From contig CAYUQI010000002.1 in NCBI GenBank assembly GCA_964446935.1, forward strand, positions 194-64,193: a DNA stretch of 64,000 nucleotides, written 5' to 3'. Of the stretch, positions 1,318 to 47,697 are shown piece after piece. Both the position numbers and the translations under genes were made by a program. Origin of the DNA: an uncultured Pseudomonadota bacterium (GTDB lineage Bacteria; Babelota; Babeliae; Babelales; RVW-14). The notes beneath the pieces were generated by a model that saw only the letters and a list, made by a program, of their open reading frames with translations, did no database searches and was not told the origin of the DNA. Positions within the stretch are counted from its first letter, which is position 1. Every line of letters begins with the position of its first letter.

Positions 1318-1347
1318 GTTAATCACTCATTGCGAGGAGGCCTATCT

Positions 1348-1809
1348 ATGTTTTTGTTAAAAAAAGTTGTTATGTTTTTACCTGTTGTACTTTCTGTTTC
1401 ATTGGGCATGTGTGCAGAGAAAAAAAATGAAAGTGAAAAAGAGCGTGTACGAAAATGTAGACAGTTTTTTGCCGGTAATTTCAGCAAAAAGAATTATGAT
1501 CAGATAGTCGAGAAAATGCAAAATGGCGAACTTGATCTTAGTGGAGAAACTGCAGAAACCTTAGCTCGGATAACACAACAAATAGTTGCATCGTCATCAT
1601 TGTTTCAAGGGGTAACTGTTGTTCATTTAGAATGTTGTGGTCTAACAAAAGTTCCAGACTTTGTTTATCATCTTCCAAAACTTAAGAAGTTATATCTTAA
1701 CGAAAATAATTTATCGGATGAAGAAAGGAACTATGTGAATACACAGCTTGCTAGAAAAAAAGTGAAAATAGTTTTTCAAGATTCAAAGAATGTAGATACA
1801 AAGCAATAA
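1348..1809 (+). CDS. small exported protein with a leucine-rich-repeat-like segment
   Basis: AGGAGG lies 9 nt upstream of ATG 1348. Signal-peptide-like N-terminus MFLLKKVVMFLPVVLSVSLGMCA. LRR-like LECCGLTKVPDFVYHLPKLKKLYLNENNLS. Confidence 0.45.
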   Translation: MFLLKKVVMFLPVVLSVSLGMCAEKKNESEKERVRKCRQFFAGNFSKKNYDQIVEKMQNGELDLSGETAETLARITQQIVASSSLFQGVTVVHLECCGLTKVPDFVYHLPKLKKLYLNENNLSDEERNYVNTQLARKKVKIVFQDSKNVDTKQ

Positions 1810-11841: not shown

Positions 11842-12517
11842 AAACACTATATTGAATAATGTTTCATTTGCTATTCCTCACGGAGGAATAGCAACGTTTA
11901 TCGGACTAAGTGGCGCTGGGAAAACATCATTGTTGCGTTGTATTGCTCAGCTCAATACTAATTATAAAGGCACAATTTTGCTTAGTGGAATTGATGTAAA
12001 AACAATGTCGGCGTTGCAAAGGGCGAAGACAATAGGGTTTGTTTTTCAGAATCTGAATTTGTTTCCCCATAAAACGGTGTTGCATAATTGTGTGCATCCT
12101 TTAGTTACTGTGCTTAAAATATCTTATCATCAAGCAGTGAGTACGTCATTAGAAAAACTTAAGCTTTTAGGCATTGATACGTTTGCTGATGCGTATCCGC
12201 ATCAATTATCAGGGGGGCAACAACAGAGGGTTGCCATAGCCAGAGCACTGTGTATGGAACCGCAACTGTTGATGTTTGATGAACCAACCTCGGCACTTGA
12301 CCCACATACTACAAAAATGGTGCAAGATAGCATCAAAACATTACAAGCAGCTGGAATAACAATTGTACTAAGCAGCCATGATATGACATTAGTTAACGGG
12401 TTGCTCGACAATGTTTATTTTGTGGAGCAGGGAGCTCTCGTTGAATCATATAATGCTTACAAAGATTCGTTGGATGATAAGCCTAAAATACGTGCTTTTG
12501 TGGGAGGCGTTAACTGA
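11804..12517 (+). CDS. amino-acid ABC transporter ATP-binding protein
   Basis: Walker A GLSGAGKTS, signature LSGGQQQRVAIARAL, Walker B LLMFDEPTSALD. Confidence 0.9.
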   Translation: MIAASNLTLTINKNTILNNVSFAIPHGGIATFIGLSGAGKTSLLRCIAQLNTNYKGTILLSGIDVKTMSALQRAKTIGFVFQNLNLFPHKTVLHNCVHPLVTVLKISYHQAVSTSLEKLKLLGIDTFADAYPHQLSGGQQQRVAIARALCMEPQLLMFDEPTSALDPHTTKMVQDSIKTLQAAGITIVLSSHDMTLVNGLLDNVYFVEQGALVESYNAYKDSLDDKPKIRAFVGGVN

Positions 12518-14627
12518 CCTTTATTTCCTCCTTAACAACATCAACCATAAACTTCTTTTTCTCTGGATGCTTTAACATTTCAACAGCCAGAGGACTGACA
12601 ATTGCATGCTGAATAGCGCGCTTGAGAGGACGAGCACCAAATTCTTTGATGTAACCGGTTTCGGCCAAATGAGCAATTGCCTTGTCGGTTATTTCAAGGG
12701 TGATGTCCTTTTCAAGCATGCGTGCTTTCAGATGTGCTAGTTGAACGTTGACGATGTGTGCCATGTCATCGATGGTTAATGATCTGAAATATACTGTTTC
12801 ATCAATACGGTTTAAAAATTCTGGGCGGAAGTTTTTATGCAATAGTTTTTCGATTTCTTGACGAACTTTTGCTGTAATGTCTCCCGCTTCCAAAATCAGA
12901 TCAGAACCAATGTTTGAAGTCATGATGATAATGCAGTTTTTAAAAGAAACGGTTCGGCCTTGGGCATCGGTCAAATGACCTTCATCAAGAATTTGAAGCA
13001 AGATATTGAAGACATCCGGGTGTGCCTTTTCGATTTCATCAAATAGAACAACACTGTACGGATGATGACGAACGGCCTCGGTCAGTTGTCCTCCTTCTTC
13101 ATAACCAACGTAGCCAGGAGGAGCGCCAATCAGACGTGCAACCGCATGTTTTTCCATGTATTCAGACATGTCGATACGAATCATTTTGTGTTCATCACTA
13201 AAGAGGTAATCGGCAAGTGTTTTGGCAACCTCTGTTTTACCAACACCGGTTGGACCAAGAAATAAAAATGAACCAATTGGTTTGTTGGGATCAGCAATAC
13301 CGGTGCGGTGAACACGAATAGTATTGGCTACCTTGGTAATAGCTTCATCTTGGCCTATGACGCGACGGCCAAGCTCAGCTTCCATCTCAATGAGTTTGTG
13401 GCTTTCATCAGCTTTTAGTTTTTCCACTGGTATTTTTACCCAACGGGCGAGTACTGCGGCTATATCTTCTTCATCAACTTCTTCTTTAATCATGTGTGTT
13501 TTGAGTTTTTTGAGTGTTTCTTGTTCGTGTTCCAATTTTTTTTCAAGTTCCGCAACCTTGCCATATTTGATCATTGAGGCTTTGGCATAATCACCCATGC
13601 GCTCTGCTTGTGCAAATTCAGTTTTGGCAGAATCAATGAGTCCTTTAAGCCTTTGAATTTCTTCAATTGGTTTGCGTTCCTTTTTCCACTGATCAAGTTT
13701 CGTGCGATGTTGTTCTTTCAAATCAGCGAGTTCTTTTTCTAATTCGGCAAGCCGTTTTTTTGAAACATCATCTTTTTCTTTGCTTAAGGCAACCTTTTCA
13801 ATCTCCAGTTGTCGGATCGTACGGTCGAGTTGATCAATAATCTCCGGTTTGGAATCGATGGTCATTTTAACCATTGCTGCTGCTTCATCAATAAGGTCTA
13901 TGGCTTTGTCGGGTAAGAACCTATCAGGAATCAGCCGAGCCGCCAGGTTGACTGCCTTGACGATGGCTTGGTCTTTGATACGAATGCCGTGATGCAACTC
14001 ATAGCGTTCTTTGAGCCCGCGCAGGATTGAAATAGCATCTTGGATGGAAGGTTCTTCGATCAAAACCTTTTGGAATCGACGTTCAAGGGCCGCATCTTTT
14101 TCAATATATTTTTTATATTCAACAGCAGTTGTTGCACCAATGCAATGCAAAATGCCACGAGCTAAAGCCGGCTTGAGTAAATTGGAGGCATCCATGCCAC
14201 CCCCGGCAGCCCCAGCACCCACAAGCATATGAAGTTCATCAATGAACAAAATGATGTGTTCTGATTCTTTTTCGATAGCATCTAATATTGCTTTGATGCG
14301 TTCTTCAAATTCGCCTCGATATTTGCTTCCAGCGACGAGTGCCCCCAAATCAAGTGATAAAATACGTCTGTTTTGTAAGCTTTCTGGGACGTCGTTGTTA
14401 ATAATACGTTGGGCAATGCCTTCGACAATTGCTGTTTTACCAACACCAGGATCGCCAACGAGGACGGGGTTGTTTTTGGTGCGTCGCGAAAGAATTTGAA
14501 CAACGCGACGGATTTCATCATTGCGACCAATGACCGGGTCTAATTTGCCCTCGCGAGCTCGTTTGGTGAGGTCTTGGCAAAACACTTCGAGAACGTTTTG
14601 ATTGGTTTCAGCCTTTTGATCATTCAT
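12510..14627 (-). CDS. clpB: ClpB-type AAA+ disaggregase lacking the N-terminal domain
   Basis: Two AAA modules ([16 protein letters not shown]) with a coiled-coil middle domain between them. The protein starts at the segment ..[22 protein letters not shown].., which follows the N-domain in full-length ClpB. Confidence 0.9.
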
Positions 14628-14674: not shown

Positions 14675-15604
14675 TTAATGCTGTTTTTTTTTATTAAAAT
14701 TTTTTTTTTGCCAGCGGCTTAATAAATTTTCAATTTTTGTAAAACTTCTGTGATGGGCGAGTTCTTCTGGTGTTAACTCGATAAACATTCTACTCGTTGG
14801 ATCGGCTTTATATTCTAAAAGTATTTTAACTATTTTATATTCATTACTCATGACGGCAGCATGCAGTGGGGTGCCTTTACTTTCAGAGCTCCATGTAAGT
14901 ATAGTTGGAAATTTTTGACAATAATCATCCAAAAATGTTTTAAGGGTCTCTGAGTTTGGTTCTGAAAGTATTTCCCATAATGTCGTTCTCGCTTGCAACA
15001 TATCCTGAATCGTTGGATTCTTGGCAACTTGGTATGGTGTTAGCCCTTCATCGTTTATAATTGTAGGATCATTGCCATATTGTAAAAGAACGTTAACAAT
15101 TTCAGGATCGCCAATTTTTGCTGCAATGTGAAGAGGGGTTTGATTATTGGTGATTGGATTGTTAATGAGGTGTGGATGAAGTATAAGAAGATTTTGTATT
15201 TCATTAATATTTTTATGGTCTAGGGCATCGAGTAATGCATGTTCTGGCGTGTGCATAACCACATCGTCGTTGTTATGATGATCATTATCGTGAGAGTTAT
15301 CTGATATAGGAGAAACATCAAGTTCATCGGATGATGCTGATAATGATGGAAATTCGGATGAAGAGGATAGGGGTGGTGTTGATGATGGTGTTACGTTGGC
15401 CATCGCAATATCTTGTGGATTTGGATCAGTGTCTTCTTCTTGAGCAAATTGAGCAGAAGACAAGAGTTGTTTTGAGTGCGATGATTCTGTGTGTATTTCT
15501 ACTGTTGCGCCTTCTGATTGTGCCACCCTGGGTTCCGCGGCATATACAGAAGAGAGTGTTAAAGAGGTGAGAAAAGTTTGGATACCGATAGTGATTTTCT
15601 TCAT
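14675..15604 (-). CDS. exported ankyrin-repeat protein
   Basis: ANK motifs TPLHIAAKIGDPEIVNVLLQYGNDP and TPLHAAVMSNEYKIVKILLEYKADP. Signal-like MKKITIGIQTFLTSLTLSSVYA (internal ATG of track ORF 14675-15664). Confidence 0.8.
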   Translation of the reverse strand: MKKITIGIQTFLTSLTLSSVYAAEPRVAQSEGATVEIHTESSHSKQLLSSAQFAQEEDTDPNPQDIAMANVTPSSTPPLSSSSEFPSLSASSDELDVSPISDNSHDNDHHNNDDVVMHTPEHALLDALDHKNINEIQNLLILHPHLINNPITNNQTPLHIAAKIGDPEIVNVLLQYGNDPTIINDEGLTPYQVAKNPTIQDMLQARTTLWEILSEPNSETLKTFLDDYCQKFPTILTWSSESKGTPLHAAVMSNEYKIVKILLEYKADPTSRMFIELTPEELAHHRSFTKIENLLSRWQKKNFNKKKQH

Positions 15605-15848
15605 AGTAACCCCAGATACTCTGTTTATATTCTCTTTAGGTAGTATATCACCTAATCTGCCCAAACCATAATGAGGTGTATAACGGTTTAAAAGTCACTA
15701 TTTTGCATGAAGTTCTCCGAAATCGTTTCTATGTAACAAAAAATTCGTCCGAGCTTTAAATGTTTCGATTGTGATGATACAATGGCGCTCCCAATAAAAA
15801 TTTATCATAAAAAATTGATGTGGATTAAATAACTAAGGATTCTTCTCG

Positions 15849-19125: not shown

Positions 19126-19145
19126 TCTGAATTTTAATTGATAAT

Positions 19146-19178
19146 AAAAATGCCCACGAGATAATCGTGGGCATTTTT
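19146..19178. terminator. bidirectional rho-independent terminator
   Basis: AAAAATGCCCACGA-gataa-TCGTGGGCATTTTT between convergent genes. Confidence 0.8.
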
Positions 19179-19200
19179 ACGTATATAAAGACGGAATGTT

Positions 19201-19728
19201 TTAGTGAATTGATTGGTTTCTAACGACAAATGCTTGAGAAAGTAGTAAATGGTCAAGGAACTCTACTGTTGCTTTTATTTCAATAATATCCTGTAAGCCA
19301 TAGCTTTTGTAGATCATTGCAAGTTTTTTGATAATGTTTTGATTGTTATATCCCTTCATTTCTTTCCATATAACAATCAAGTCCATAAGTACTACTATTC
19401 TGGATAGATTTTTTTGAGAACATGGGACTGTGACTCCATCAAAAGGATCCGCGTTGTCTTCGAGGATGTTTCTGATGGTTGGTGATGTGTTAGCGGCTGC
19501 ACGGGAGATGTATACAGTGCCATCAGTTCCGTAAAGGACGATCTTTTCGGGGGTGTTACAGTTGTTGGCAAAGGTACTACTTGATGATGAAGAACGGCTA
19601 TTCGCTTTTGCAGGATCTTCCCCGATACTGTCTATGATCATAGGATCATAATTTGAAAACATGGGGAATGCTGTTGTTGCGATTAAAGCAATATATGTTG
19701 CAGAAAAGACAATCTTTTTAAGTTTCAT
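19201..19728 (-). CDS. exported Skp1/BTB-POZ-like protein
   Basis: After a signal peptide and a Ser-rich linker comes IVLYGTDGTVYISRAAANTSPTIRNILED..VTVPCSQKNLSRIV. This parallels eukaryotic Skp1 [44 protein letters not shown]. Confidence 0.5.
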   Translation of the reverse strand: MKLKKIVFSATYIALIATTAFPMFSNYDPMIIDSIGEDPAKANSRSSSSSSTFANNCNTPEKIVLYGTDGTVYISRAAANTSPTIRNILEDNADPFDGVTVPCSQKNLSRIVVLMDLIVIWKEMKGYNNQNIIKKLAMIYKSYGLQDIIEIKATVEFLDHLLLSQAFVVRNQSIH

Positions 19729-19916
19729 AAATACCTCATAGTGGGGGGCAAGAGATTATAATGGTGGGCAGCTATAGTACTACTTTTGTTTGTGTAATTC
19801 AATAATGGCTGGTCGCATGAAGCCGTTGTTATTGAATGAACGATACTGTTGTGCTACTGATGATTGATATTACATACTTAACCAATCGTATTATAAGATA
19901 TGCGTGAAGAGAGAGG

Positions 19917-22583
19917 GTGATGATGAATAGTAACCGAGCATATGTTTTTATTGCATGTGTTATTTTTTTATTATGCGTAAGCAATTCCATTCATGCTCGT
20001 GATGTTGGGCAACGGTTTATTCTAACGTTGCCGGAACATGTTGCGCATAAACAACTTTGTTCGTGGCTCAGTAAAACTCGTCCAGCTGGCGTTATGTTGC
20101 AATCAAGTCATGTAGCCAATCGCATGGAGGCAAAAAAACTTATTACCTTTCTTCAAAAGGAAACAAAAAAGCTTGGATTGTTACCGCTGATCATAGCCAT
20201 TGATTGGGAAGGAGGCATTGTATCTCGTCCCAATGAAGAGGGGGACTTTGTTTCTGTGCCAAGTCCATGGTCATTGGCCAAAGGTGAGCGGAATGCCTGC
20301 TTTCTGGCTGGCATGCTTCTTGGTCATCAGATGCATAGTGTTGGTATAACCATGGATTTTGCACCATCGCTTGATGTGTTTGACCCTAACAATTGTGTGC
20401 TTGCTACTCGTTGCTTTTCTCATGATCCTGTAAAGATTGCTGAATATGCTACAGCATATGCTAAAGGATTGATGGTTTATGGTATTGTTCCAGTAATCAA
20501 ACATTTTCCTGGGCTTGGGGCAGGTAGGGCAGATACGCATTTTGCTAGCGTAGCAATCGCACAGCATGATAATGATTTTGAACGAAACATTCAACCGTTT
20601 AAGACATTGTTGCAAGATGGTATGCAATGTGTGATGACGACTCATGCGCGACATGCACAGTACGATGATGTGCCTGCCTCGTTGTCACGTCGTGCAGTCA
20701 ATGATATCAAAATACATAATCCCAATGCAGTGATTATTACCGATGATTTTTGCATGAAGGCTGTACAAGAGGGACGAACGCTTGAGCAAGCGGCTATGCA
20801 GGCGTGGGATGCTGGAGCACATATTATTATTTTTTCTGGAACAGCCAAACGTCAAATCGAATTGATTGAATCATTACAAAAAACCTATGATGCGTGGCCG
20901 AGTGATAAAAAACAGGATTTTGAACAGATGTGTAACCACATTGATTCATGTAAACATCAATGGATGTCGGCACCAGTTCAAATAATGCCTGAATTGAATG
21001 AATGTGAACTCGCTACCTATCTTGCACATCGATGTGTTACCGTTGATCACCCAATGCCTTTGCTTATCGGCAGACGTGTTGTGGTGGCATCGGTTGATCT
21101 ACCGCGTATTCGTCCGATGGAACAATGGTTTATGCACGATGCCCATACCCATTTGGCACAATTATTGGCGCAACAAGGTGTTGATGTTAGTGAATATGTG
21201 TACAATCCTCTTGATGAAACAAGCGTAGAGAAATTGAAAAACGACGTAGAAACTGATGAGTATGATTATATTGTTGTACAAACATTCTTTTACGGTGCTG
21301 GGAAATGGAATGATGTACAAAAAACTTGGTTACAAGTTCTGGAGCCGTTCCGGGACCGTGTGATTAGCGTGTCATTGGGACACCCATTAGAAAAACTTCT
21401 GTTACCGAGGGCTTATTGTATTGATGCTGGGTCATTTCATAAACCGTTACTCAAGCATGTGGAAGATTTGTTAACGAGGCAAACTGTTGTTGGTGCTAAT
21501 ACATTTGTACAAGGCCCGGGACGTTACCTGAACAACAAACGTTTCGGATTGTTGTGTAACAATGGGAGTGTTGTCTACAAAGATCAAGCAAGATGCTTTT
21601 TGCCTGATGTGTTATATCAGTGGACTGTTGATAGCAAGTGTGGTGCGAAACTTGCTGCGCTTCTAAGTCCGGAACATGGCTTGTTAGGTAACAGTTCTGC
21701 TGCAACACTCGTCTCATCTCAATCTTCATCCGTTTGGCATTGTCCTGTGCATTCGCTGCATGGCGATACCTTTAAGCCAAGCAGTGATATGATGCGTAAT
21801 CTTGATCTGGTGGTTATTGATCTTCCTGATGTTGGGGTCAGATGTTTTACCTATTTGAGCACCGTTGCGTATATGTTGCAAGCAGCCAAAACTGCAAACA
21901 TCCCTGTTCTTGTGCTTGATCGCCCTAATCCGTTGGCATGTTGGGGCGCTCAGGGACCTCGTCTTGATAAAAGTTGTGAATCATTTTTGGGTACGGTACA
22001 TACACCATTTTTGCATGGGTTAACGATCGGGACAATTGCGGAACAGGAAAATAAAAACATTGGCGCCGACCTTACAGTACTTTCATGTACGGGCGATGAT
22101 GCATTGTTTTTTAACCAACCGTTTATTCCTCCATCACCTAATTTACGAAGCATTGATCATGTGTATGCATATCCGTTGACGGTGTTGTTGGAGGGAACAA
22201 ATTATTCGGAGGGTCGCGGTACATTGTATCCCTTTGTGCAATTCGGGGCACCATGGGTTGATGCAGAGCAGTTGGCCACTCAGCTGAATAGCAAAAAACT
22301 ACCTGGTTTGTATTGTGAACCAATAACATTTCAGCCACGTTCGATGCCAAGAATTGCCGAAAATCCTAAACATAAGGGTAACCGCTGTCAGGGTGTGTTT
22401 ATTCATATTACAGATCATCAGAATGTTCAGCCGATCAAAACGGCAAAGACGATATTAAAAACGTTATTCCACTTGTATCCAGAACAATCACAGTTGTTAC
22501 GTAGTGGTAAGCGGTATATGTTGGATATCTTGATTGGAACGGAAAAGTGGAGAAAAGAGCTTGAACGACTAACTCTTAAGTGA
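19917..22583 (+). CDS. fusion of GH3 beta-N-acetylhexosaminidase (NagZ-like) and a DUF1343 (NamZ-like) domain
   Basis: N-terminal half: IAIDWEGGIVSR, KHFPGLGAGRADTHF (GH3 motifs). C-terminal half: FGLLCNNGSV..LLSPEHGLLGN..DLPDVGVRCFTY..LDRPNP (DUF1343 pattern). Signal-like N-terminus. Confidence 0.75.
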   Translation: MMMNSNRAYVFIACVIFLLCVSNSIHARDVGQRFILTLPEHVAHKQLCSWLSKTRPAGVMLQSSHVANRMEAKKLITFLQKETKKLGLLPLIIAIDWEGGIVSRPNEEGDFVSVPSPWSLAKGERNACFLAGMLLGHQMHSVGITMDFAPSLDVFDPNNCVLATRCFSHDPVKIAEYATAYAKGLMVYGIVPVIKHFPGLGAGRADTHFASVAIAQHDNDFERNIQPFKTLLQDGMQCVMTTHARHAQYDDVPASLSRRAVNDIKIHNPNAVIITDDFCMKAVQEGRTLEQAAMQAWDAGAHIIIFSGTAKRQIELIESLQKTYDAWPSDKKQDFEQMCNHIDSCKHQWMSAPVQIMPELNECELATYLAHRCVTVDHPMPLLIGRRVVVASVDLPRIRPMEQWFMHDAHTHLAQLLAQQGVDVSEYVYNPLDETSVEKLKNDVETDEYDYIVVQTFFYGAGKWNDVQKTWLQVLEPFRDRVISVSLGHPLEKLLLPRAYCIDAGSFHKPLLKHVEDLLTRQTVVGANTFVQGPGRYLNNKRFGLLCNNGSVVYKDQARCFLPDVLYQWTVDSKCGAKLAALLSPEHGLLGNSSAATLVSSQSSSVWHCPVHSLHGDTFKPSSDMMRNLDLVVIDLPDVGVRCFTYLSTVAYMLQAAKTANIPVLVLDRPNPLACWGAQGPRLDKSCESFLGTVHTPFLHGLTIGTIAEQENKNIGADLTVLSCTGDDALFFNQPFIPPSPNLRSIDHVYAYPLTVLLEGTNYSEGRGTLYPFVQFGAPWVDAEQLATQLNSKKLPGLYCEPITFQPRSMPRIAENPKHKGNRCQGVFIHITDHQNVQPIKTAKTILKTLFHLYPEQSQLLRSGKRYMLDILIGTEKWRKELERLTLK

Positions 22584-28340: not shown

Positions 28341-28758
28341 TTAATAATCCCACGCATCGTTTTTATTGAGTGCATAAAAGAGATCTTTTCGATAAAAGTT
28401 AAGTTGGATTTCTAATTGTCTTAAGCGTTCATCTCTCTGCTCAAATTTCGGTTGATTAGCTACAAGGGTAAGTTGTCGCTCTAGTGCTTGTATCTTATTC
28501 TGTAAAATTAATACTTTAAATTGTGGTTTGTCACAAAGTTTTTTTAAGAAGCGACATGTTGTTTGAAGCGATAATAGGTCTACCGAATCGAGCTTGGCTG
28601 CTATTTCAGTTAATATGTCATCGGGTAGTTGCGATAAACTTGTAGTTGATGTAGCTGCTGGTGATTGTTCTATGGCTTGAACAGTTGGATTAGATGCTAT
28701 ATAGGTGAAGAAACACCATATAGGTTGCTCTGAATGTTTTGGTTATAACGGTATTCAT
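28341..28758 (-). pseudogene. F-box protein gene disrupted by a 1-nt frameshift near its 5' end
   Basis: A 133-codon open frame (28344-28742) has no ATG/GTG/TTG. It encodes ..SLSQLPDDILTEIAAKLDSVDLLSLQTTCRFLKKLCD.. (F-box motif). ATG 28758 opens a 22-codon frame offset by one nt; joining the two would give a normal signal peptide. Confidence 0.55.
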
Positions 28759-29149
28759 GATAAATCCTTTCATGGATTATTAAAATTCAAAAATAACTAC
28801 AAAGAAACCATTGCGTATTTAAAACGTTAAACACGCACTATTCTTGTTCGACAAGGTGCTACAAAAATAAAAAATAAAATGAAAATAAGGGGGGATTTAA
28901 TGGGAATGATGGTGATGATGTCGATGATGCATCGACAGGGTAGAAATAGAAAAGATGACGTTAGAAGTAACGTCTAAAGAACATTTTGATGAGAAAAATA
29001 AGGCATTTTGCCTTTGCTGTATCGGAATCATAATGTCCTCCGAAAGGGTTATTAGATCTTTGTGGTTAGATCTCCATGATCTAACCAGGAATGGCCATAA
29101 TTCATTAAAGAAACTGGCCGTGCCAACCGAAGCTCGATAGAGCGAAGGC

Positions 29150-29523
29150 TGGTGGAGGCGATGGGAGTCGAACCCATGTCCGCAGTAAACAAAGTACTCA
29201 GTCCTACATGTTTATTCCTTGTTTATACTCCTACACAAAAGCAAGGAATCCTGCGTGTAAGAGCCGATTGAGTGTACGCTGTTGGTTACACATTCGGAAA
29301 AGTCTTGCCAACAGGTTCTATCTGAATAATACGAGTATTACCAACTGATAGACACGCCAGTAATACAAGAGCTACTCAGTTACTAATTAAGCAACGTATG
29401 CAGCTTGTGAATGACCAAAGTCATCACTTATTTGATTTGAAGGATTCTTTAACGAGTTTCTTCCTCCAAAACTCGACATGCGCTCAGTACATCGTCTATT
29501 ACGTCGAGACCAATTACGCCCCC
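29150..29523 (-). ncRNA. ssrA: tmRNA (SsrA)
   Basis: 5' GGGGGCGUAAUUGGUCUCGACG and 3' ..GGGUUCGACUCCCAUCGCCUCCACCA form a tRNA-Ala-like acceptor stem with a G3-U70 pair. The internal tag frame ends ..CAA GCU GCA UAC GUU GCU UAA (..QAAYVA*). Confidence 0.9.
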
Positions 29524-34084: not shown

Positions 34085-35002
34085 ATGGTGGTTATTATGC
34101 TTCGCAAACTAATAGTTTTTTTCGTATTTCTTAATCTAGTTGGTTCGTGCATAGGTGCGGTCAAAGAACCTCGTAGGAGGAAGCAACAGCCGCCCATTGT
34201 TTGTTTTGAATCAATTGATCAATCTACCTATGAAAAAAACGCAAAACAAAATATATATCATGGGCAGAACATGTGTGGTTTGTTTGCTACATACAATGGT
34301 CTTATGATGCTGGATCATGCTCGCACAGGAGAACAACCGACCGGCGAACGTTGTAAAAATATTGATTTGTTCAATACATGGCTTGGCAAGAATGATCAGA
34401 TTCTTAAAGACATAATAAATGACCAAACCATTAAAAAAGGTAAGTACCTCGGTGATTTGAGTGCTGACAATATCGAAGCATTGATTAAGAAACATGATTC
34501 ATCGGTTAAGAAACATGATTCATCATGTAAAGATGTTTCAATCGTCATTCAGTGGCGTGATTTTGAAAAAGCGTTACGCGGTATGTATGACACTATGAAA
34601 TCGTTTCGGCGTGATAAGGATCCACACTTGGTTATTGTTCATGCCAATAATCACTGGATTGCGATTGTTATTCTTGAGCATGAAACATGGTGTATGGATT
34701 CTTTCAATGACACAACAACAACCGATCCTATTGTAACTCGTGTTGATACCCTATTTCGAAGAGACTCTCTATCTTCACAACGCGTGCATGTACGCGAGAA
34801 ACGCAAAAGAAAGCAAATAACCCCAAAAAAAGATCCAAAGGATGTTGTTGAACTTTCTGATTCTGATGACGATGCTGATAAAAGCGTAGACAAAAATCAG
34901 CACAAAAGCGTTAAAGAGTCAGAAGACAAAAAGCATGATGTTCAAAAAACAGGCATCCAACCTGATGCCTCATCAGATAATTCTGGTTGTTCTATCCAAT
35001 AA
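34085..35002 (+). CDS. exported papain-fold cysteine protease with Josephin-like motif arrangement (candidate deubiquitinase) and a basic/acidic tail
   Basis: HGQNMCGLFATYNGL (Gln..Cys) and NHWIAIVILEHETWCMDS (His to Asp spacing of 15). Compare ataxin-3 QEGSLCAQHCLNNL and EHWFTVRKLGKQWFNLNS. The tail contains EKRKRKQITPKK. Confidence 0.45.
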   Translation: MVVIMLRKLIVFFVFLNLVGSCIGAVKEPRRRKQQPPIVCFESIDQSTYEKNAKQNIYHGQNMCGLFATYNGLMMLDHARTGEQPTGERCKNIDLFNTWLGKNDQILKDIINDQTIKKGKYLGDLSADNIEALIKKHDSSVKKHDSSCKDVSIVIQWRDFEKALRGMYDTMKSFRRDKDPHLVIVHANNHWIAIVILEHETWCMDSFNDTTTTDPIVTRVDTLFRRDSLSSQRVHVREKRKRKQITPKKDPKDVVELSDSDDDADKSVDKNQHKSVKESEDKKHDVQKTGIQPDASSDNSGCSIQ

Positions 35003-35115: not shown

Positions 35116-35982
35116 ATGAAAATTCAAAACCAATTTATTGTTTCGATTATAGTTTTCTTTTTATACGCAGTATATGTCCATGGTGCGGTCAAGAAGGAAA
35201 AAAAAGATCAAAAGTCGCATTCTCAAGTTAATACAGAATTTAATTTAGCCGCCAAAGCTGGGTCTCTTAAAAAGCTTAAACAAGCTATTGATGAGGACGC
35301 CTCTATTGATTATGTAACTCCACGAACAGGGTGTGGATCGATTCATTGGCTTGCCACAAGTGGTGATATAACAGCGATAGAAGTTTTGTTGAAAAATGGT
35401 GCAGATGTTAACCAAAAAGATGATATGGGTAGAACATGTCTTTTTTCAGTGCTGAGTAATGAGCATGTTAATAATCTTAAAACGTTTAATATTCTCATTC
35501 GCAAACATAGCGCTATTCTTGGTACTAAGGATAATAAAAGAAACACACTTTTTCACGCGGCAGCTGCAATAGGATCTACGTTTTGGATCAATACTTTGTG
35601 GGCTACTATTTGCGAAAAATTTCCGGAGGAAGTAGCTAGCGGCCTGTTAAAAATGGAAAATATCGATCACAAAACAGCTCTTGATTTAGCACAAGGGCAA
35701 TATGATTTTGCGGAAAAAAGGTATCAGAAGGCTCTTGATTCAAGTTCAGATCAAAGCAATGACCATTCAGTGATTAATCGTGCGAACAAGATGAAAAAGT
35801 ACAAAACCGTTATTACAACAATTGAGCAGCTATTGCATATCAAGCCACATGAAGAGAATAGTACGCAAAGTAGTAGTACGCAAAGCAGCAGTACTGCTAC
35901 CCCTGCCCCATTGACCAAAATGAATAGCTTTGCGCCTGAGGATGATGATGGTCTTGGATCTGCTAGTAAAGATGATAGGTAA
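35116..35982 (+). CDS. exported ankyrin-repeat protein
   Basis: Signal-like N-terminus. ANK motifs GSIHWLATSGDITAIEVLLKNGADVNQKD and NTLFHAAAAIGS. Ser/Thr/Gln-rich tail with a STQSSS repeat. Confidence 0.8.
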   Translation: MKIQNQFIVSIIVFFLYAVYVHGAVKKEKKDQKSHSQVNTEFNLAAKAGSLKKLKQAIDEDASIDYVTPRTGCGSIHWLATSGDITAIEVLLKNGADVNQKDDMGRTCLFSVLSNEHVNNLKTFNILIRKHSAILGTKDNKRNTLFHAAAAIGSTFWINTLWATICEKFPEEVASGLLKMENIDHKTALDLAQGQYDFAEKRYQKALDSSSDQSNDHSVINRANKMKKYKTVITTIEQLLHIKPHEENSTQSSSTQSSSTATPAPLTKMNSFAPEDDDGLGSASKDDR

Positions 35983-37847: not shown

Positions 37848-38999
37848 TTATTCAGTTGCTCCATGATCCTGTAAATATTTAATCATTTTTCGATTTCTAT
37901 GTTGTTGAGCCCAATAAAGAGCGGTATATCCGTAAAAATTTTTGTTGTTTACATTAACCCCCGCCTCCACCATTCTTTTCACACCAACAAAATTATTCTG
38001 TTTCGCGTAACTAACTAAAGTCTGAACCATCTTGTAGGGCGTCATTCCGAGCAGCCGTTGTTTACGCTTTATGGTTTCTACTTTTCTTATATCCGCCCAC
38101 TCTGTTTTTTCTTGTGCTTCTTTAATTGCTTCTTTTGCATCTTCTTGTAAAGCTGCGGCTTTTTTTAGGATATCTTCTTTGGTTTGAAGAGTCTCATCTG
38201 CCAATATTTGATCGGTAAATTTTTCTAATTTTTTTTCTTTGAGTATTGTTGTTATGTTTTCGATTTTTTTATTTTGTTCATCTAAGTCTTGTTTTAATCG
38301 CTTTAAGGTGGCCAATTCAATCTCGAGTTTGCCTTTTTTAATGACAAATTTAGTGTTAGCCTTTACCTTGGTTAAAATGTCTTGAATTTTTTCTATTTCA
38401 ACGATCTGGCTTTCAATGTTTTCTAACTCTGCTTCCTTGTTTTTTATGTAGGTATCTAGATTAGATACAGTCCATAGACTTTCTTGTATATCAGCCACTG
38501 TTGTGTCAAAGTTGCCTGCTATTATTCTATTGATAAGTCTTCTTCCCCGTCCTGTTAGATCATAGTTGATGTTATGTTGATAAAAAGAAGCAATTATGGC
38601 AGCAATGCCAGTCAGGGATATCCCATCGAGCCATTTTTGTACCGCCACATTATCTTGTGGATAATATTCTAAATTTTTTCCTTCTTTAGAAAAACTTTTA
38701 ATGTTGGGAGTTTCGCCAGCGTCAAAAGGGCTGTATATTACAGTAAAATCTCCAACATTCCTTTTAAATTTTAAAATTAATTTATATAAAATATCTAATT
38801 TCTCTGGATTATCGGTTAAGTTGAGGGTGTTTTCATCGATATCGATGCATTGATTTGTTACGCCAAAAGGATCGTTTTCAATTTTTTTTACTACAGAATC
38901 AATTGTTTCTATTGTTATGAGTTTTTGTGAAGACTGGCCATAACAGGTGAGATAAGAAAATAAGACTATAAAAATAGAAAACATTTTAAAGATTCTCAT
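37848..38999 (-). CDS. exported coiled-coil protein with C-terminal ankyrin repeat(s)
   Basis: Signal-like MRIFKMFSIFIVLFSYLTCYG. Long heptad-like K/E-rich middle region. C-terminal VKRMVEAGVNVNNKNFYGYTALYWAQQHRNRKMIKYLQDHGA. Confidence 0.6.
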   Translation of the reverse strand: MRIFKMFSIFIVLFSYLTCYGQSSQKLITIETIDSVVKKIENDPFGVTNQCIDIDENTLNLTDNPEKLDILYKLILKFKRNVGDFTVIYSPFDAGETPNIKSFSKEGKNLEYYPQDNVAVQKWLDGISLTGIAAIIASFYQHNINYDLTGRGRRLINRIIAGNFDTTVADIQESLWTVSNLDTYIKNKEAELENIESQIVEIEKIQDILTKVKANTKFVIKKGKLEIELATLKRLKQDLDEQNKKIENITTILKEKKLEKFTDQILADETLQTKEDILKKAAALQEDAKEAIKEAQEKTEWADIRKVETIKRKQRLLGMTPYKMVQTLVSYAKQNNFVGVKRMVEAGVNVNNKNFYGYTALYWAQQHRNRKMIKYLQDHGATE

Positions 39000-39736: not shown

Positions 39737-42400
39737 TTAAGCAGATACAGCTTCAAGCGGCTCTTTTTCTCGCTGTGCTATGCCAATAGGTCCTTGGACT
39801 GGCGCATAATGCGCAGCTTGTTTTTGCTTTTCTGCTTCTCGTTTGAGCCGTGCTTTTTCAATGGCTTCAGAGACCTTAAAATAAGGGTCTTCTTGTAGGT
39901 TGGCCGACTTTGGTCGGTTTCTGCCATACGTGTAGTCATCTATTGGTCTTAAAACACCTTGAGCAGCATCTGATAATTTTTGCTTAATTGTCTGATGTGA
40001 TGGTCGGAAAAACCATCGTTGTATTGGATCTCGGTCATGAATGTACATATCATTTTTCATAATCTGATATTTAGCATAATCAAGTTTAAGTTGGGTATAT
40101 TCATCAGGAGCGCCCTCAAAGCGTGGTTTGATAATACTTGGGCGAATGAATACGTAGAGGTTTTCCTCTGTTTTCGATTTTGCTTTAGTTTTAAACAAGT
40201 TTCCCAGAATTGGAATATCGCCAAGAATTGGAGTTTTATAAACATCATCAGTTAGTTTACTTTTGGTTAATCCACCAAGGACCAAAACTTCACCAGCGCC
40301 CAAACATGCTTTTGTAACCAGTTTTCTTGTTGATTTGGAAGCGGTATCCGAAGGGTTTACTTGTTGAAATTCATCGACCGATATATCGGTTGACAGGTCA
40401 ATGGTACCCGTCAAGTTGATAGTAGGTGTAAGATCAATTTTAATTTCAGCATCCAAATCTTCTTTTTGAACGACTGGCTGGATGTTTTTGGTATCTACTT
40501 TGCCGCTGACTCTAAATGTTGTTTTGACCGAAACCGTACATTTTTGATTGTTGTTGGCGATAACATATGGTTGTGAAATAACTTGAGAATTTTTGATATT
40601 TAACGTTGCCTTGATGATTGACCAGATGTTTTGATTCGTTCGTGGATCTGCGCGTCCTAAGGTAAAGTAACTCCCGTGTTCGTTACCAATAAGCTGATTA
40701 GCGGGATCTAAAAAATCAATGTATGGGTTTGAAAATGGATTTTTGCTTTCTTCAGTGCCACTTTTAGCTATCCCTGATGTTAGATTTTGGAATTCAACAT
40801 TGACATTATGAGCGAGCGGATTGCCTTTGACGTTAAACATCTGTACCCCGAGTGAACGATCATTTTGCATATTCACATCAACAATCATGACCTCGATAGC
40901 TACTTGTGGTTGTGGTTTGTCAAGTTTATCAATAAAGGTCTCAAGCCGTTTCCAGTCTTCTCGGTTACAAGCAATAATAAGACGATTACCGCCGCCGCGT
41001 TTGGCTGTTTCGGATCCAGCTGTATCATCTTGTTCTGCGCTGATAACAACATCTTCAAAAACCTTGTAACCACCTTCCATGACCAATGCCTTTTCTGTTG
41101 TTCCTTTTGGTGGTTTGATGATATCAACAAGAATAGGTTGAATATCTTGTGCACGAACATAACGCAGCTCCTTGACATGGAGGCGGGAATCAGCACTTTC
41201 GATAGGGACATCAAGATATTTGTAGATAAAGCCTTTGATTTTTTCGATATTCTTTTTAGTGCCTAGGAGAATAAGTGAGTTTTGTGTTGGTTCAGCAAGG
41301 ATTTTTGTCGCTGAAGAAAAATAAGAAGCTTCTTTTGATTGAAACGATGAGAAACGAATAATCTTTTCGTCTTTTTCTCCAACAATATCGGTAAACAGTT
41401 TTTGAATATCATCAGCATTAGCCCATGTGAGTGAAATTACCTCAATAGCTTCACGAAGCCCGCCATCGTCGAGTTCTTTGACGATTTTCATGGCTGCTTT
41501 GATGTTTAAACATTGATCTTTGATGATACAGACGTTCAAATCCTTGTTATCAACAATATTTTTTTCATCAATCATTTTGCTTAAAATACTATGTGCGGCG
41601 TCAACCTTTATATTCTTTAAAAAATAGACGTATCGGACAACAAGATCGCTATCGGGAAGATTTTCTGGCTCTGTTCCGGTTCCTGATGAGTACACAGGAA
41701 GTGGTTCTTGTCCGTTGTTTTGGCTTGGAACAACGCGGTGCAGTGCCCCGACTTTAACAATGGTGAACCCATTCATTTCAAGAAGGGTAAGCATTACGTT
41801 CCATGCTCGTTCGAGAGTTAGCGGGTTACGCGTTGTCAATGAAACCTTAGCCGTCTCGAGGTCTTTATGAGGAATAATATTAAACTTTTTTTGCTCTGAG
41901 AGGTAATTAAGCACACTTCCAAGTGAAGCATTATCAAAATTGAGATAAATATTTGCATCATCCTGTGTTTCTTGTGGCACTAAATCGCCGACGTTAATCG
42001 TTGTTGAAGGCATAACTCCATTTTGTGGCGGAAGTGCCGGTTGCGGGGTTGCTGGTTGTTGTTGCTCTGGTTTGCTTGGCGTGACAGGAGTTGTTGTCGA
42101 TGATTCAGTTGGCGTTGCTGGTTGCAGTGGTGTAGAAAATTCAGGCATTGAGGCTATTGCGGATTCGGCTGGTGGCATTGCAGCAGAAGGCGGCACAGCA
42201 GTGGGTGCTGTTGCGACTGTTTCTGCAGCAGGGGTAGCCGTTGTTAGCTGAGGGGCTGGGGTAGCTGTGACTGATGGCACCGGGGCTGAAGTGGTAGGCA
42301 TAAGTGGCATGAGTGCCATGGTGGTGTTTATCCACCATGGCGCAAACAGAAAACATAAGAGCATTATAAGTGATCTACTATATTTCATAGCCGTTATCAT
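39737..42400 (-). CDS. secretin, GspD-like (copy 2)
   Basis: N0-like IYLNFDNASLGSVLNYLSEQKKFNIIP..LEMNGFTIV. Secretin core VLVLGGLTKSK..YKTPILGDIPILGNLFK. Signal peptide and a Pro/Thr/Ala-rich spacer. Confidence 0.85.
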   Translation of the reverse strand: MITAMKYSRSLIMLLCFLFAPWWINTTMALMPLMPTTSAPVPSVTATPAPQLTTATPAAETVATAPTAVPPSAAMPPAESAIASMPEFSTPLQPATPTESSTTTPVTPSKPEQQQPATPQPALPPQNGVMPSTTINVGDLVPQETQDDANIYLNFDNASLGSVLNYLSEQKKFNIIPHKDLETAKVSLTTRNPLTLERAWNVMLTLLEMNGFTIVKVGALHRVVPSQNNGQEPLPVYSSGTGTEPENLPDSDLVVRYVYFLKNIKVDAAHSILSKMIDEKNIVDNKDLNVCIIKDQCLNIKAAMKIVKELDDGGLREAIEVISLTWANADDIQKLFTDIVGEKDEKIIRFSSFQSKEASYFSSATKILAEPTQNSLILLGTKKNIEKIKGFIYKYLDVPIESADSRLHVKELRYVRAQDIQPILVDIIKPPKGTTEKALVMEGGYKVFEDVVISAEQDDTAGSETAKRGGGNRLIIACNREDWKRLETFIDKLDKPQPQVAIEVMIVDVNMQNDRSLGVQMFNVKGNPLAHNVNVEFQNLTSGIAKSGTEESKNPFSNPYIDFLDPANQLIGNEHGSYFTLGRADPRTNQNIWSIIKATLNIKNSQVISQPYVIANNNQKCTVSVKTTFRVSGKVDTKNIQPVVQKEDLDAEIKIDLTPTINLTGTIDLSTDISVDEFQQVNPSDTASKSTRKLVTKACLGAGEVLVLGGLTKSKLTDDVYKTPILGDIPILGNLFKTKAKSKTEENLYVFIRPSIIKPRFEGAPDEYTQLKLDYAKYQIMKNDMYIHDRDPIQRWFFRPSHQTIKQKLSDAAQGVLRPIDDYTYGRNRPKSANLQEDPYFKVSEAIEKARLKREAEKQKQAAHYAPVQGPIGIAQREKEPLEAVSA

Positions 42401-42403
42401 AGT

Positions 42404-42952
42404 TTAATCCAGCATCGATTTATATTTTTTCGTTGCAAGCATGATGTCAAATCCTATTTTTTGGCCGCCCTCGTTGCGAATTTTTAATTCCTTGATATAG
42501 ACGATTTCTTTTTTATCAAGCGTATCAAGTATTTTTACGAGTTTTTCAGTTGTTTGTCCTTTGAATGATGCAGGCAATGTAATTTCATCAAATCGTTCAT
42601 TGACGGTTTCGGCACGAGCATCCCATCCTGTTTCTGGAGTGATATTTTGTTCCCGATAAAATTGTTCAAAAAAGCCCTTCATAGTAAAATCTTTGTTTTT
42701 ATCTAAAATTTCCTTAAATCGAACCTCGTCCTTAATCATTTTTCTGTTATTAGCAATCATTTTAAAGGAACGTTCAGTGAGTGTTTGAAGTTGTTTAATG
42801 TGCATAGCAAGATCATACTTTTTTTGATAAATAAAGTAGGTAACAGAGGCTGCAACAAGTGCTACTGAACCAAGAAAAAGAAGAATGTGCCGCTGAAACT
42901 GTTTTTGATTAAGATTTTGAAGATAACGAGCGAGTTTATTAAGTGCTTCCAT
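42404..42952 (-). CDS. small bitopic GspM/PilO-like assembly protein
   Basis: Single TM (ILLFLGSVALVAASVTYFIY) followed by a ~120-aa soluble domain. Position is right after the GspL/PilM-like gene. Confidence 0.4.
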   Translation of the reverse strand: MEALNKLARYLQNLNQKQFQRHILLFLGSVALVAASVTYFIYQKKYDLAMHIKQLQTLTERSFKMIANNRKMIKDEVRFKEILDKNKDFTMKGFFEQFYREQNITPETGWDARAETVNERFDEITLPASFKGQTTEKLVKILDTLDKKEIVYIKELKIRNEGGQKIGFDIMLATKKYKSMLD

Positions 42953-42955
42953 GGT

Positions 42956-44665
42956 TTATATCTCTTTCAATCTCATTCTCACCGAAAAGTTAACCCCATC
43001 TGCCGGTGTGGTTTCAATAGGCTCGATAACTTTGAGGATTGTTGAATCTCTAAAACGGTTTTCCAATGGAATGAAATCAACGAAGTGATCACCTGTTTTT
43101 GATTTAAAGATTCCTTCAACTTCAAGTTTTGGAATGCCAGCATCTTTTTTAGGCGAACCATCCTTCTCTTTTTCCCAATTGCGTTCTTGCGTAGTAAAGA
43201 CAATTTCTTTGATCGAGACGTCAAATTGTTTTCTATTAATAATACGCGTGAGTTCAAGCCACAAATCAAGTGGTCGCATGCGTTGTTGAGCAAATGGAGC
43301 CCACACATCAAGCTTATCACGGACAATTCGCTCAGCCTCACGGACAACAGTTGCTAATGATGCGTTTCTAGGAAATTGTTCTTTGGTGAAGATATCCTCT
43401 GTTTTAATGCGATTGATTTCACGTAATTCAAACATTCGAGCTTCATTGCTCAGTTTGTGCAGATCAATAAATCCTTTGATTCCTATTCCTGTGAGCATGG
43501 CGATGATAATAAACACAGCCATTGCTAGTTGTTTGACTAAAAGGCTATGCCGTTGAAAGGCAAATTGTTTTCGCCGTAAATCAAACAACTCTTGTGCTGG
43601 TGATGGAATAGCGGCACCAAGAGCGTTGGTAAAGATGTTCCAGTGATCGATAGGAGATTTGACCTTGTTTTTGATGTGTTTGGTATCAAAAAGTTTTTTA
43701 CAATCAAAGATTTCGCATGGAAGTTGAATGGTGTTACTGCAAAATTCCATAAAATTAGGAATTGTGTGTACATAACCGGTAAAAAGGACTTTGCTGATTC
43801 CTTCGTAATAATTCAACTTAAGGCTGAATGAATTGAGGGTAAATTGTACCTCGTTGAGCAAAAGCACGAAATGCTTTTGCATACTGCGGGCGAGTACTTC
43901 ATCGTTAAGGCCATATAAGCCGGCTGCTGCAAGCTTCTTTTCAACCTCTTCAGGCGAAAGCTTTGTTTCATCACTGATAAATTTAGTGATTGAGGCCATA
44001 CCTCTTTGAATGTAACGTGTGAGGCGAAGTTGCCCATCTTGAATAAAGGCAACGCGTGTATTTTCATGGCTAAATTCAACAAGTGCTACTGCATTGGGCA
44101 AAGAATGATATTGAGGAATCTGTTGAAAAAGCCCATACAATGAAAACAAGTCAATGGTGATATGCGCAGGATCAACTCCAGCTTTTTCGTAAATAGAAAG
44201 ATGTGCTTGTAGATCTTGACTTCGTACTGCTGCAACAAGGACCTGCGTTCCTTGATCCTTGCTTGTTTTTGTGATGATAAAATCAACAATTGCTTCGTTA
44301 ATAGCAAAAGGAATCATGGTTTCTATTTCATAATCAAGTACCATTCGAATTTTTTCTGGATCGCTGAATTGTAGCTGCAATTCTTTGAAAATAACGATTG
44401 ATGCTGGAATACAAATGCGAACATAATTGTATGCTGAAATGGTACCAATAATTTTTTTAATAGCTTGTGCAGCTCGATCGGTATATGTTTCTGCCGGGCC
44501 GGCCTCGATTTTCTCTTCTTTAAGAAACTCAAGGATATTCTTATGACGTTTGGCATATACAAGCGCGAGTCGAACTGCATCATCATGCAGTGCCAACCCA
44601 ACAATGTGTTGGGCAAGAATACGATGAGTACCTATTTTTTCAGGTAAAAAAATTTCCTTGATCAT
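42956..44665 (-). CDS. GspL / PilM-PilN-type protein (actin-like cytoplasmic domain + TM + periplasmic domain)
   Basis: PilM-like segments VAAVRSQDLQAHLSIYEKAGVDPAHITIDLFSLYGL and TRVAFIQDGQLRLTRYIQRGMASIT. TM segment LAMAVFIIIAMLTGIGI, then a ~170-aa tail. Confidence 0.65.
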   Translation of the reverse strand: MIKEIFLPEKIGTHRILAQHIVGLALHDDAVRLALVYAKRHKNILEFLKEEKIEAGPAETYTDRAAQAIKKIIGTISAYNYVRICIPASIVIFKELQLQFSDPEKIRMVLDYEIETMIPFAINEAIVDFIITKTSKDQGTQVLVAAVRSQDLQAHLSIYEKAGVDPAHITIDLFSLYGLFQQIPQYHSLPNAVALVEFSHENTRVAFIQDGQLRLTRYIQRGMASITKFISDETKLSPEEVEKKLAAAGLYGLNDEVLARSMQKHFVLLLNEVQFTLNSFSLKLNYYEGISKVLFTGYVHTIPNFMEFCSNTIQLPCEIFDCKKLFDTKHIKNKVKSPIDHWNIFTNALGAAIPSPAQELFDLRRKQFAFQRHSLLVKQLAMAVFIIIAMLTGIGIKGFIDLHKLSNEARMFELREINRIKTEDIFTKEQFPRNASLATVVREAERIVRDKLDVWAPFAQQRMRPLDLWLELTRIINRKQFDVSIKEIVFTTQERNWEKEKDGSPKKDAGIPKLEVEGIFKSKTGDHFVDFIPLENRFRDSTILKVIEPIETTPADGVNFSVRMRLKEI

Positions 44666-47667: not shown

Positions 47668-47697
47668 AACCCTTTCTTCCCCTTGCTCAACATTACA

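Follow-up and report, generated by a model that had tools for sequence, protein, structure and literature searches.

A minus-strand gene at positions 19201–19728 of the window, by which we mean the whole 64,000-nucleotide stretch of contig CAYUQI010000002.1 analyzed here, encodes a 175-residue protein composed of a predicted signal peptide, a Ser-rich linker, and a domain of ~115 residues that very probably adopts the POZ fold of the Skp1/Elongin C branch. Judging from its sequence, the protein is best described as a divergent, stand-alone POZ domain of the adaptor type, in which some determinants of cullin docking are kept and the receptor-docking module is gone. Our preferred reading, to which we assign a probability of roughly 0.5, is that it is an exported effector of an intracellular Babeliales bacterium and mimics the adaptor level of the host ubiquitination machinery.

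The gene and its family

The open reading frame (ORF) at 19201–19728 is a real gene. The first-pass annotation of this DNA had described its product as a signal-peptide-bearing homologue of eukaryotic Skp1, and every peptide string quoted there is present in this ORF, including the N-terminus MKLKKIVFSATYIALIATTAFPMFS, the SRSSSSSS run, EKIVLYGTDGTVYISRAAANTSPTIRNILEDNADPFDGVTVPCSQKNLSRIVVLM, and DIIEIKATVEFLDHLLLSQA. The parts of the gene and its flanking signals, with the basis for each, are:

19201–19728, minus strand: complete coding sequence of the predicted exported POZ protein of the Skp1/Elongin C family (175 residues; ATG at 19728, stop codon at 19201–19203)
19669–19728, minus strand: predicted Sec signal peptide, residues 1–20 (MKLKK, then IVFSATYIALIA, then TTA, followed by FP); sequence reading and hydropathy scan
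19552–19668, minus strand: low-complexity linker, residues 21–59, with an FPMFxxYDPMII motif and a Ser run; family alignment
19204–19551, minus strand: probable POZ core, residues 60–175; Pfam, hhalign, PDB profile search, AlphaFold2 (AF2)/Foldseek, and MAFFT
19734–19737, minus strand: Shine-Dalgarno-like GAGG, 5 nt 5′ of the ATG; sequence reading
19144–19180, no strand assigned: bidirectional intrinsic terminator hairpin (A-tract, 16-bp stem, T-tract); folding

The hairpin lies between the Skp1-like gene and a convergent deoxynucleoside kinase (dNK) gene and folded with an energy of −23.3 kcal/mol (z −7.4). A scan for promoter and terminator consensus sequences did not pick it up at 19144–19180, probably because its A and T tracts pair into the stem. 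On contig L001, which carries a 67%-identical orthologue (P0002), the gene is preceded by the same ATGAGGTAT motif as the Shine-Dalgarno region here, and the orthologous hairpin shows compensatory changes (GCCCACG/CGTGGGC versus GGCCTACG/CGTAGGCC).

Relatives of the protein were few. P0002 came from a Logan contig and was flanked by the same GH3-NamZ and dNK genes as in the window; a 99%-identical copy (P0001) was present on ENA, JGI, and Logan contigs with unchanged neighbors; and a third, 167-residue member (P0003), 41% identical, was encoded by a complete gene with a stop codon. A truncated near-copy of P0003 (L085) also came from a metagenome scan; next to it, the gene on the 5′ side may be Sua5/TsaC-like to judge from its translation. 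Orthologues thus found in two other lineages stood in bacterial gene contexts. Among ~15 billion proteins, with word-based searches of 5.8 billion clusters, the family amounted to three clusters at 90% identity (the window protein with P0001, P0002, and P0003), and there were no further bacterial relatives. An exhaustive HMMER scan of 1.84 billion representatives returned only P0002, P0003, and a spurious RCC1-like repeat protein (P0004), with no eukaryotic Skp1 at E ≤ 1e-3. A scan of genome contigs with the family alignment found no copy in GTDB representative genomes, NCBIfam gave no family match, and no paralogue occurred elsewhere within the 64-kb window. A search with human SKP1 gave near-identical metazoan sequences only, which contributed little on diversity or descent, and at about 19% identity we considered that a tree of a possible transfer would carry no useful information. 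The extreme rarity of the family shows the lineage-specificity of such effectors.

All members shared one architecture, consisting of a hydrophobic N-terminus that ends in TT[A/K]A followed directly by [F/L]PM, a Ser run, and then the domain; in P0003 and L085, a run of 11 Ser residues occupied the linker position. Between the window gene and that of P0002, the ratio of nonsynonymous to synonymous substitution rates (dN/dS) was 0.63 overall, 0.50 in the domain, and about 0.9 in the linker, with a dS of 0.30. The two proteins were 67% identical, whereas short fragments of the flanking genes were about 85–91% identical. Together with dN/dS, this difference shows that the gene is constrained but fast-evolving, and that it changes faster than its neighbors.

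A probable POZ domain of the Skp1/Elongin C branch

The first-pass annotation had reported a resemblance to Skp1 and proposed that it be checked by profile search and by structural superposition. The resemblance held up as going beyond chance in the Pfam comparison, in shuffled alignments, in hhalign, and in a profile search of the PDB. Against the Pfam Skp1_POZ profile (PF03931; curated cut-off 21.9 bits), P0002 scored 24.6 bits (E 2.9e-5), the window protein scored 17.7–18.6 bits (E 0.002–0.004), and P0003 gave no match; the family thus reaches the curated threshold through one member, P0002, and the window protein itself stays below it. Smith–Waterman alignments to human SKP1, Arabidopsis ASK1, Dictyostelium Skp1, and yeast Elc1 gave z values of 3.3–5.5 for the window protein and 4.9–6.4 for P0002, with 0–3 of 300 shuffled sequences scoring as well. 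The reference sequences used here and in the profile and MAFFT alignments for yeast Skp1, human Elongin C, yeast Elc1, and Dictyostelium Skp1 are provisional; the human SKP1 reference was 100% identical to database entries, and a fragment of the Dictyostelium sequence agreed with the 6v88 alignment.

Profile comparisons gave a similar picture. When the three-member family profile was aligned by hhalign to a 10-sequence Skp1 alignment, the probability was 74–75%, the pairwise E-value 2.4e-5, and the score 35.4, and the score against Elongin C was 31.6; the maxima over 200 column shuffles were 21.1 and 18.4, respectively, and a reversed profile scored 11.6 and 7.9. In a search of PDB sequences with the family profile, the top four matches were SKP1-like 1B (E 0.049), Dictyostelium Skp1a, SKP1-like 20, and Elongin C. 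A phmmer search of the PDB with the single protein was set aside as too weak alone, having returned plant SKP1-like proteins only at E 1.2–1.5 plus a spurious match to DEPDC5.

In the structural comparison, the order of elements was that of a BTB core, but at low model confidence and with low similarity of the fold. An unbiased AF2 model computed from the three family sequences, with a predicted local distance difference test (pLDDT) value of 62, had the order beta-beta-alpha-alpha-beta-alpha-alpha-alpha, the order that Stogios et al. (PMC1257465) gave for the BTB core; in the nomenclature of that fold, the POZ core of the window protein would run B1-B2-A1-A2-B3-A3-(helix)-A4 and end in a short terminal helix. 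Nearly all of the top 20 Foldseek matches to this model were Skp1, Elongin C, or other BTB proteins (KCTD, SPOP), at E-values of 0.045 or worse, and PDB entry 5k35 was among the matches as a Skp1 chain. The template-modeling (TM) score of the unbiased model was about 0.35. With Skp1 rows added to the alignment, pLDDT rose to 78 and TM against ASK1 to 0.74–0.75, but this run is biased and serves as a test of compatibility only.

We assign the domain to the POZ folds of the Skp1/Elongin C branch with high confidence because these modest Pfam, PDB, hhalign, and Foldseek lines all point the same way. What weighs against the assignment is that none of the sequence or fold matches is strong by itself: the window protein falls short of the Pfam cut-off, the E-values of the family-profile matches in the PDB are weak (0.05–0.14), the TM score of the unbiased model is low, and the good model comes from an alignment seeded with Skp1. 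The weakness of the individual E-values and the very shallow alignment of three sequences would also suit a chance resemblance, in which case the product would be a small, lineage-specific alpha/beta protein with no POZ fold. We regard this alternative as very unlikely, as Pfam, phmmer and hmmsearch against the PDB, hhalign, and Foldseek converge independently on Skp1/Elongin C, the observed scores were reached by 0 of 200 column shuffles and 0–3 of 300 sequence shuffles, and one family member, P0002, passes the curated Pfam threshold.

Comparison with Skp1 and Elongin C

Skp1 and the window protein are both small single-domain proteins, with only about 19% identity between them. Strand B1 of the window protein (KIVLYGTDG) aligned with IKLQSSDG of Skp1, its A1/A2 segment ISRAAANTSPTIRNILED with Skp1 A1/A2, and its B3 strand (VTVPCS) with VPLPNV, and the last conserved helix, IEIKATVEFLD, corresponded to FELILAANYLD in Skp1 H5 and LELLMAANFLD in Elongin C. 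The aromatic character of Skp1 Tyr109 is conserved in the family. The acidic loops of Skp1 are missing from the window protein, which carries a signal peptide and linker in addition.

The largest difference lies at the C-terminus. The alignment to Skp1 stopped at or just after helix H5/H6, the family ends 40–55 residues before the Skp1 C-terminus, and PF01466, the C-terminal Skp1 domain, gave no match in the window protein even at E ≤ 10. The early end of the alignment and the lack of a PF01466 match agree with the first-pass annotation, which had noted that the protein is shorter than Skp1 at the C-terminus, where Skp1 contacts its F-box partners. It is this extension, helices alpha7/alpha8, that defines Skp1 and forms its F-box-binding surface (PMC1257465; PMC4403949).

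Determinants of cullin docking were kept in part. The PxPN motif of Skp1 strand B3, which contacts Cul1 (PMC1257465), is replaced by TVPC in the window protein, FVPC in P0002, and PVPF in P0003; the second Pro of the motif was invariant in the MAFFT alignment of the family. In Elongin C, Met105 and Phe109 make up a hydrophobic pocket that receives the N-terminal tail of Cul2, and the M105A and F109A mutations weaken Cul2 binding 20- and 37-fold, respectively, in terms of the dissociation constant (PMC5462531). At the position of Phe109 (Tyr109 in Skp1), the three family members have F, Y, and Y, and at the position of Met105 they have A, A, and D. The isoelectric point of the domain was 7.3–9.2, and thus neutral to basic, compared to 4.4 for Skp1 and 4.7 for Elongin C. 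With no F-box-binding C-terminal domain, with TVPC in place of PxPN, and with a charge that is neutral to basic instead of acidic, the protein is not an orthologue of Skp1.

In size and extent, the family resembles Elongin C/Elc1, the Cul2/Cul5 adaptor, which is a core BTB fold without A5 and without alpha7/alpha8 (PMC1257465). In the MAFFT alignment, the C-terminus of P0003 (AFDYLDL) lined up with the C-termini of human Elongin C (AANFLDC) and yeast Elc1 (AADYLSI), and the window protein and P0002 ran 15–17 residues, or one short helix, past this end. The window protein also shares the motif ISRxAAxxSPTh[K/R]xhhE (h = I/L/M) with yeast Elc1, and the profile score against Elongin C was comparable to that against Skp1. 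Elongin C is acidic, whereas the window protein is basic and predicted to be exported. Homology to the Skp1-family POZ domain, as claimed in the first-pass annotation, therefore stands, but the label of Skp1 homologue is too specific, because Elongin C scores about as well and the extent of the domain is Elongin C-like; PF01466 and PxPN are both missing. The sequence data do not separate the two candidate relatives.

Predicted export signal and secretion setting

The bacterium is a member of the Babeliales (Dependentiae), an order of protist parasites, because the ClpB encoded in the window was 67% identical to that of a Candidatus Babeliales metagenome-assembled genome, with the other matches at 54–61% and scattered over unrelated phyla; the gene content, with signal-peptide ankyrin proteins and a type II secretion system (T2SS), fits this placement. 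The G+C content of the window was about 39%.

The predicted N-terminal export signal and the Ser-rich linker noted earlier recurred across the family. In all members, the hydrophobic N-terminal segment has n, h, and c regions and a T-x-A cleavage motif. In the window protein, the hydropathy maximum of this segment was 2.06 and its hydrophobic stretch spanned ~19 residues; we infer the position of the cleavage site from the −3/−1 rule. Right after the predicted site, a motif, FPM[FL]xxYDPMII (LPMFVDE in P0003), at 19600–19668 on the minus strand, is conserved, whereas the rest of the linker is not, and this motif may be a secondary sorting or secretion signal. On the strength of these sequence features, we think it likely that the protein is exported.

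A type II secretion-like cluster at 39737–48867 on the minus strand, 20–29 kb from the Skp1-like gene, includes a small membrane protein and the following genes:

47698–48867, minus strand: GspC-like protein
39737–42400 and 44662–47667, minus strand: two GspD-type secretins (887 and 1001 residues)
42956–44665, minus strand: PilM/GspL-like protein

The occurrence of two tandem secretins with long, low-complexity N-terminal regions rich in Pro, Thr, and Ala is unusual. By a crude hydropathy filter, 22 of the 50 ORFs in the window had hydrophobic N-termini, or about 20 when evident false positives are subtracted. In Chromulinavorax, signal peptides are present on 44% of all proteins and on 78% of those with ankyrin repeats (PMC6561590), and in Babela, a signal peptide marks 79 of 126 ankyrin proteins, for which secretion into the cytoplasm of the amoeba is predicted (PMC4378268). 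The Babela gene set further includes F-box, RING, and deubiquitinase proteins (PMC4378268); the papers on Babela and Chromulinavorax do not mention a Skp1 or Elongin C homologue (PMC4378268, PMC6561590).

An effector-like layout recurs in the window, in which a signal peptide and a Ser/Pro-rich linker (or tail) are combined with ankyrin or leucine-rich repeats (LRR). Effector-like ankyrin/LRR ORFs are located at:

1330–1809, plus strand
14675–15664, minus strand
35116–35982, plus strand
37848–38999, minus strand
57517–58980, plus strand

An F-box frame in the same window

The first-pass annotation had placed F-box genes in the window. A home-made F-box profile and then Pfam located one such domain, in a frame at 28344–28742 on the minus strand, 8.6 kb from the Skp1-like gene (PF00646, 36.1 bits, E 5.2e-9; F-box-like, 31.4 bits). 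The region at 28344–28790 on the same strand encodes this F-box domain followed by a coiled-coil tail. The frame at 28344–28742 has no ATG, GTG, or TTG start codon. An adjacent frame holds MKGFIMNTVITKTFRATY, and the F-box frame begins with IWCFFTYIASNPTVQA followed directly by IEQSPAATSTTS, which looks like one signal peptide split between two frames by a frameshift. The gene may be a pseudogene, an assembly error, or a case of recoding. What remains of the claim is thus one Pfam-confirmed F-box domain in a single, apparently frameshifted frame that lacks a start codon. Because alpha7/alpha8 are absent from the Skp1-like protein, canonical binding of this F-box protein would not be expected. 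A second candidate, a segment of the ankyrin ORF at 57517–58980 that had been read as an F-box by eye (SSDLFVHTLCTYSSLSDAACLARVCKVF), was rejected, having no Pfam match at E ≤ 10 and no match in the PDB.

Proposed mode of action and alternatives

In the mechanism that we propose, the Sec signal peptide would take the protein across the inner membrane, the T2SS would be the most plausible way out of the cell, and a flexible Ser-rich linker would precede the POZ domain. This domain would keep the half of the adaptor that docks on the cullin N-terminus and would lack alpha7/alpha8, which hold F-box receptors. In the host cytoplasm, it could take the adaptor position of cullin-RING ligases by occupying a host cullin or a partner such as Elongin B, or by competing for it. 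Normal substrate receptors would then not be delivered, and the protein would behave as a 'headless adaptor' or cap that damps the activity of host Skp1–cullin–F-box (SCF) and Elongin–cullin–SOCS-box (ECS) ligases. We put even odds on an action on the host cullin-RING machinery, as judged from the sequence. That the protein would work as a cap or competitor instead of a bridging adaptor is a more tentative proposal, favored because the cullin-facing half is what remains. The fast evolution of the gene (67% identity compared to its flanks; dN/dS 0.5–0.6) and the recurrent layout of ORFs in the window were counted as effector-like and in favor of the proposal.

Several observations weigh against it. 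The incomplete conservation of the cullin hot spots, with PxPN not kept and Met105 replaced by Ala or Asp, and the basic surface are the main warnings. In contrast to the acidic Skp1 and Elongin C, the domain is neutral to basic, so that its partner may not be a cullin at all and could instead be host Skp1, Elongin B, or a target outside of ubiquitination. The signal was judged by eye and hydropathy, and its ~19-residue hydrophobic stretch could act as a membrane (signal) anchor instead of a cleaved signal. Finally, passage through Sec and the T2SS into the host cytosol is an assumption drawn from published work on related bacteria.

The alternatives to a cap divide over where the protein acts and what it binds. 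If it were a bridging adaptor like Elongin C, the cleft formed by its last helices would receive a short helix, a 'box' resembling a BC-box or a degenerate F-box, from secreted bacterial proteins, for example the ankyrin proteins, and a link from these partners to a host cullin would create a hybrid ligase for the ubiquitination of host targets. The end of P0003 falls precisely on the C-terminus of Elongin C/Elc1, Elongin C itself is the core fold without A5 and alpha7/alpha8 (PMC1257465), its profile score is about equal to that of Skp1, and the ISRxAAxxSPTh[K/R]xhhE motif is shared with Elc1; in addition, a virus-encoded Skp1 works together with ankyrin receptors that are also viral in chloroviruses (PMC7019647), and the window encodes many ankyrin proteins with signal peptides. 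Nevertheless, both binding to a bacterial box and assembly of a hybrid ligase seem unlikely to us, given that no BC-box or SOCS-box partner was identified, that the F-box-like segment of the ankyrin ORF at 57517–58980 lacks Pfam or PDB support, that the cullin hot-spot residues are only half conserved, and that the surface is basic and not acidic. The same N-terminal half that matches Skp1 motif by motif, together with an H5-like ATANYL in P0002 and the genuine F-box domain 8.6 kb away, could be taken to indicate a true Skp1 substitute that binds host or bacterial F-box proteins, including that of the window, and connects them to Cul1. This is the possibility that we disfavor most strongly, and we consider it highly improbable: F-box binding needs alpha7/alpha8 (PMC1257465, PMC4403949), which are absent here, PxPN is not conserved, and the F-box frame of the window has no start codon and is apparently frameshifted.

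A further alternative would keep the protein in the bacterial envelope, attached by its signal or membrane anchor, with the POZ-like domain in the periplasm or on the surface, where it might mediate oligomerization and would have no role in host ubiquitination. A Sec-type signal alone directs a protein no further than the periplasm or membrane, at ~19 residues the hydrophobic stretch is long, BTB folds are generic oligomerization modules (PMC1257465), and neighboring genes are envelope-related (the GH3-NamZ muropeptide enzyme and a 3D-domain protein). Such a role is nonetheless improbable, because the similarity points specifically to Skp1/Elongin C, a branch for which no periplasmic function is known, because searches of ~15 billion proteins and NCBIfam revealed no other bacterial relatives or family, because the gene evolves faster than its neighbors, and because signal peptides in related Babeliales mark proteins predicted to be secreted and directed at the host. 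Among these readings, an exported mimic of the host adaptor remains the one we prefer.

Relation to known adaptors and effectors

Pathogens mostly hijack host ubiquitination by means of fake substrate receptors (F-box, U-box, or BTB-repeat proteins) or novel ligases. Bacterial F-box effectors, Legionella AnkB among them, act on the pathway proposed here as the target, that of the host SCF, but they mimic the substrate receptor and bind host Skp1, whereas the window protein resembles the adaptor itself. A truncated, exported adaptor would act one level above a fake receptor and could affect every receptor of a given cullin.

A bacterial parallel in fold comes from the Parachlamydiaceae, which have BTB-box and F-box effector families and are the only bacteria in which a classical BTB-box has been reported (Domman et al. 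2014, PMC4209131). These are likewise intracellular bacteria of amoebae with POZ-clan domains thought to hijack host cullin ligases. Their proteins form large, expanded families, have been assayed as type III substrates, and contain classical, Cul3-type BTB domains that are receptor-like and fused to LRR or tetratricopeptide repeats; the window protein, by contrast, is a single-copy, stand-alone domain of the Skp1/Elongin C type with a Sec signal, in Dependentiae.

Viruses of protists offer the other parallel, since chloroviruses, and apparently other giant viruses as well, have their own copy of a cullin-RING adaptor. The Skp1 of chlorovirus PBCV-1, A039L, binds the F-box-like ankyrin proteins of the virus itself (PMC7019647), and structural matches to our model in BFVD included Skp1/BTB proteins of Pandoravirus, Orpheovirus, Cedratvirus, and Pithovirus, which are giant viruses that infect amoebae. 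The viral proteins need no export signal and are not close to the window protein in sequence (identity 24% or less, E 4.5e-3 or worse). Thus, pathogen-encoded Skp1 is already known from chloroviruses, and what is new here is a truncated POZ domain of the adaptor type, with a Sec signal, in Dependentiae.

Full-text literature searches and the papers on Babela, Chromulinavorax, and Parachlamydiaceae yielded no bacterial protein of the Skp1/Elongin C type. It is conceivable, although we hold it only as a speculative proposal, that the window protein is the first bacterial mimic of a cullin-RING adaptor subunit, a secreted 'headless' Skp1/Elongin C that docks on a host cullin, Elongin B, or Skp1. 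Its gene would have come from the protist host or a co-infecting giant virus and would then have been remodeled by loss of the C-terminal domain, gain of a Sec signal, and inversion of surface charge. If this is true, a whole class of host E3 ligases could be shut down or rewired at once, and the protein would provide a compact natural tool to probe cullin–adaptor interfaces. It would also add to the view that these parasites, the Dependentiae, possess a wide range of tools against host ubiquitination.

Other features of the window

Divergently transcribed from the Skp1-like gene is an ORF at 19917–22583 on the plus strand, which encodes an 888-residue protein in which a signal peptide precedes a GH3 N-terminal domain (NagZ-like) fused to both NamZ exo-muramidase domains; this is a fused peptidoglycan-recycling enzyme within a reduced parasite genome. 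A protein with a 3D domain, envelope-related like GH3-NamZ, is also encoded among the neighbors. The ClpB-like ORF at 12510–14627 on the minus strand is only 705 residues long and starts just before the first AAA module, and it seems to be without the usual N-terminal domain.

At 34085–35002 on the plus strand, a signal-peptide protein has a Cys/His pair in protease-like contexts (QNMCGLFA and NNHWIAIV) and a tail rich in Lys, Asp, and Ser. It had no sequence match in Pfam or the PDB; a new kind of secreted cysteine protease or deubiquitinase is one possible identity. ARAGORN identified a transfer-messenger RNA (tmRNA) gene at 29150–29523 on the minus strand, with the tag peptide DDFGHSQAAYVA.

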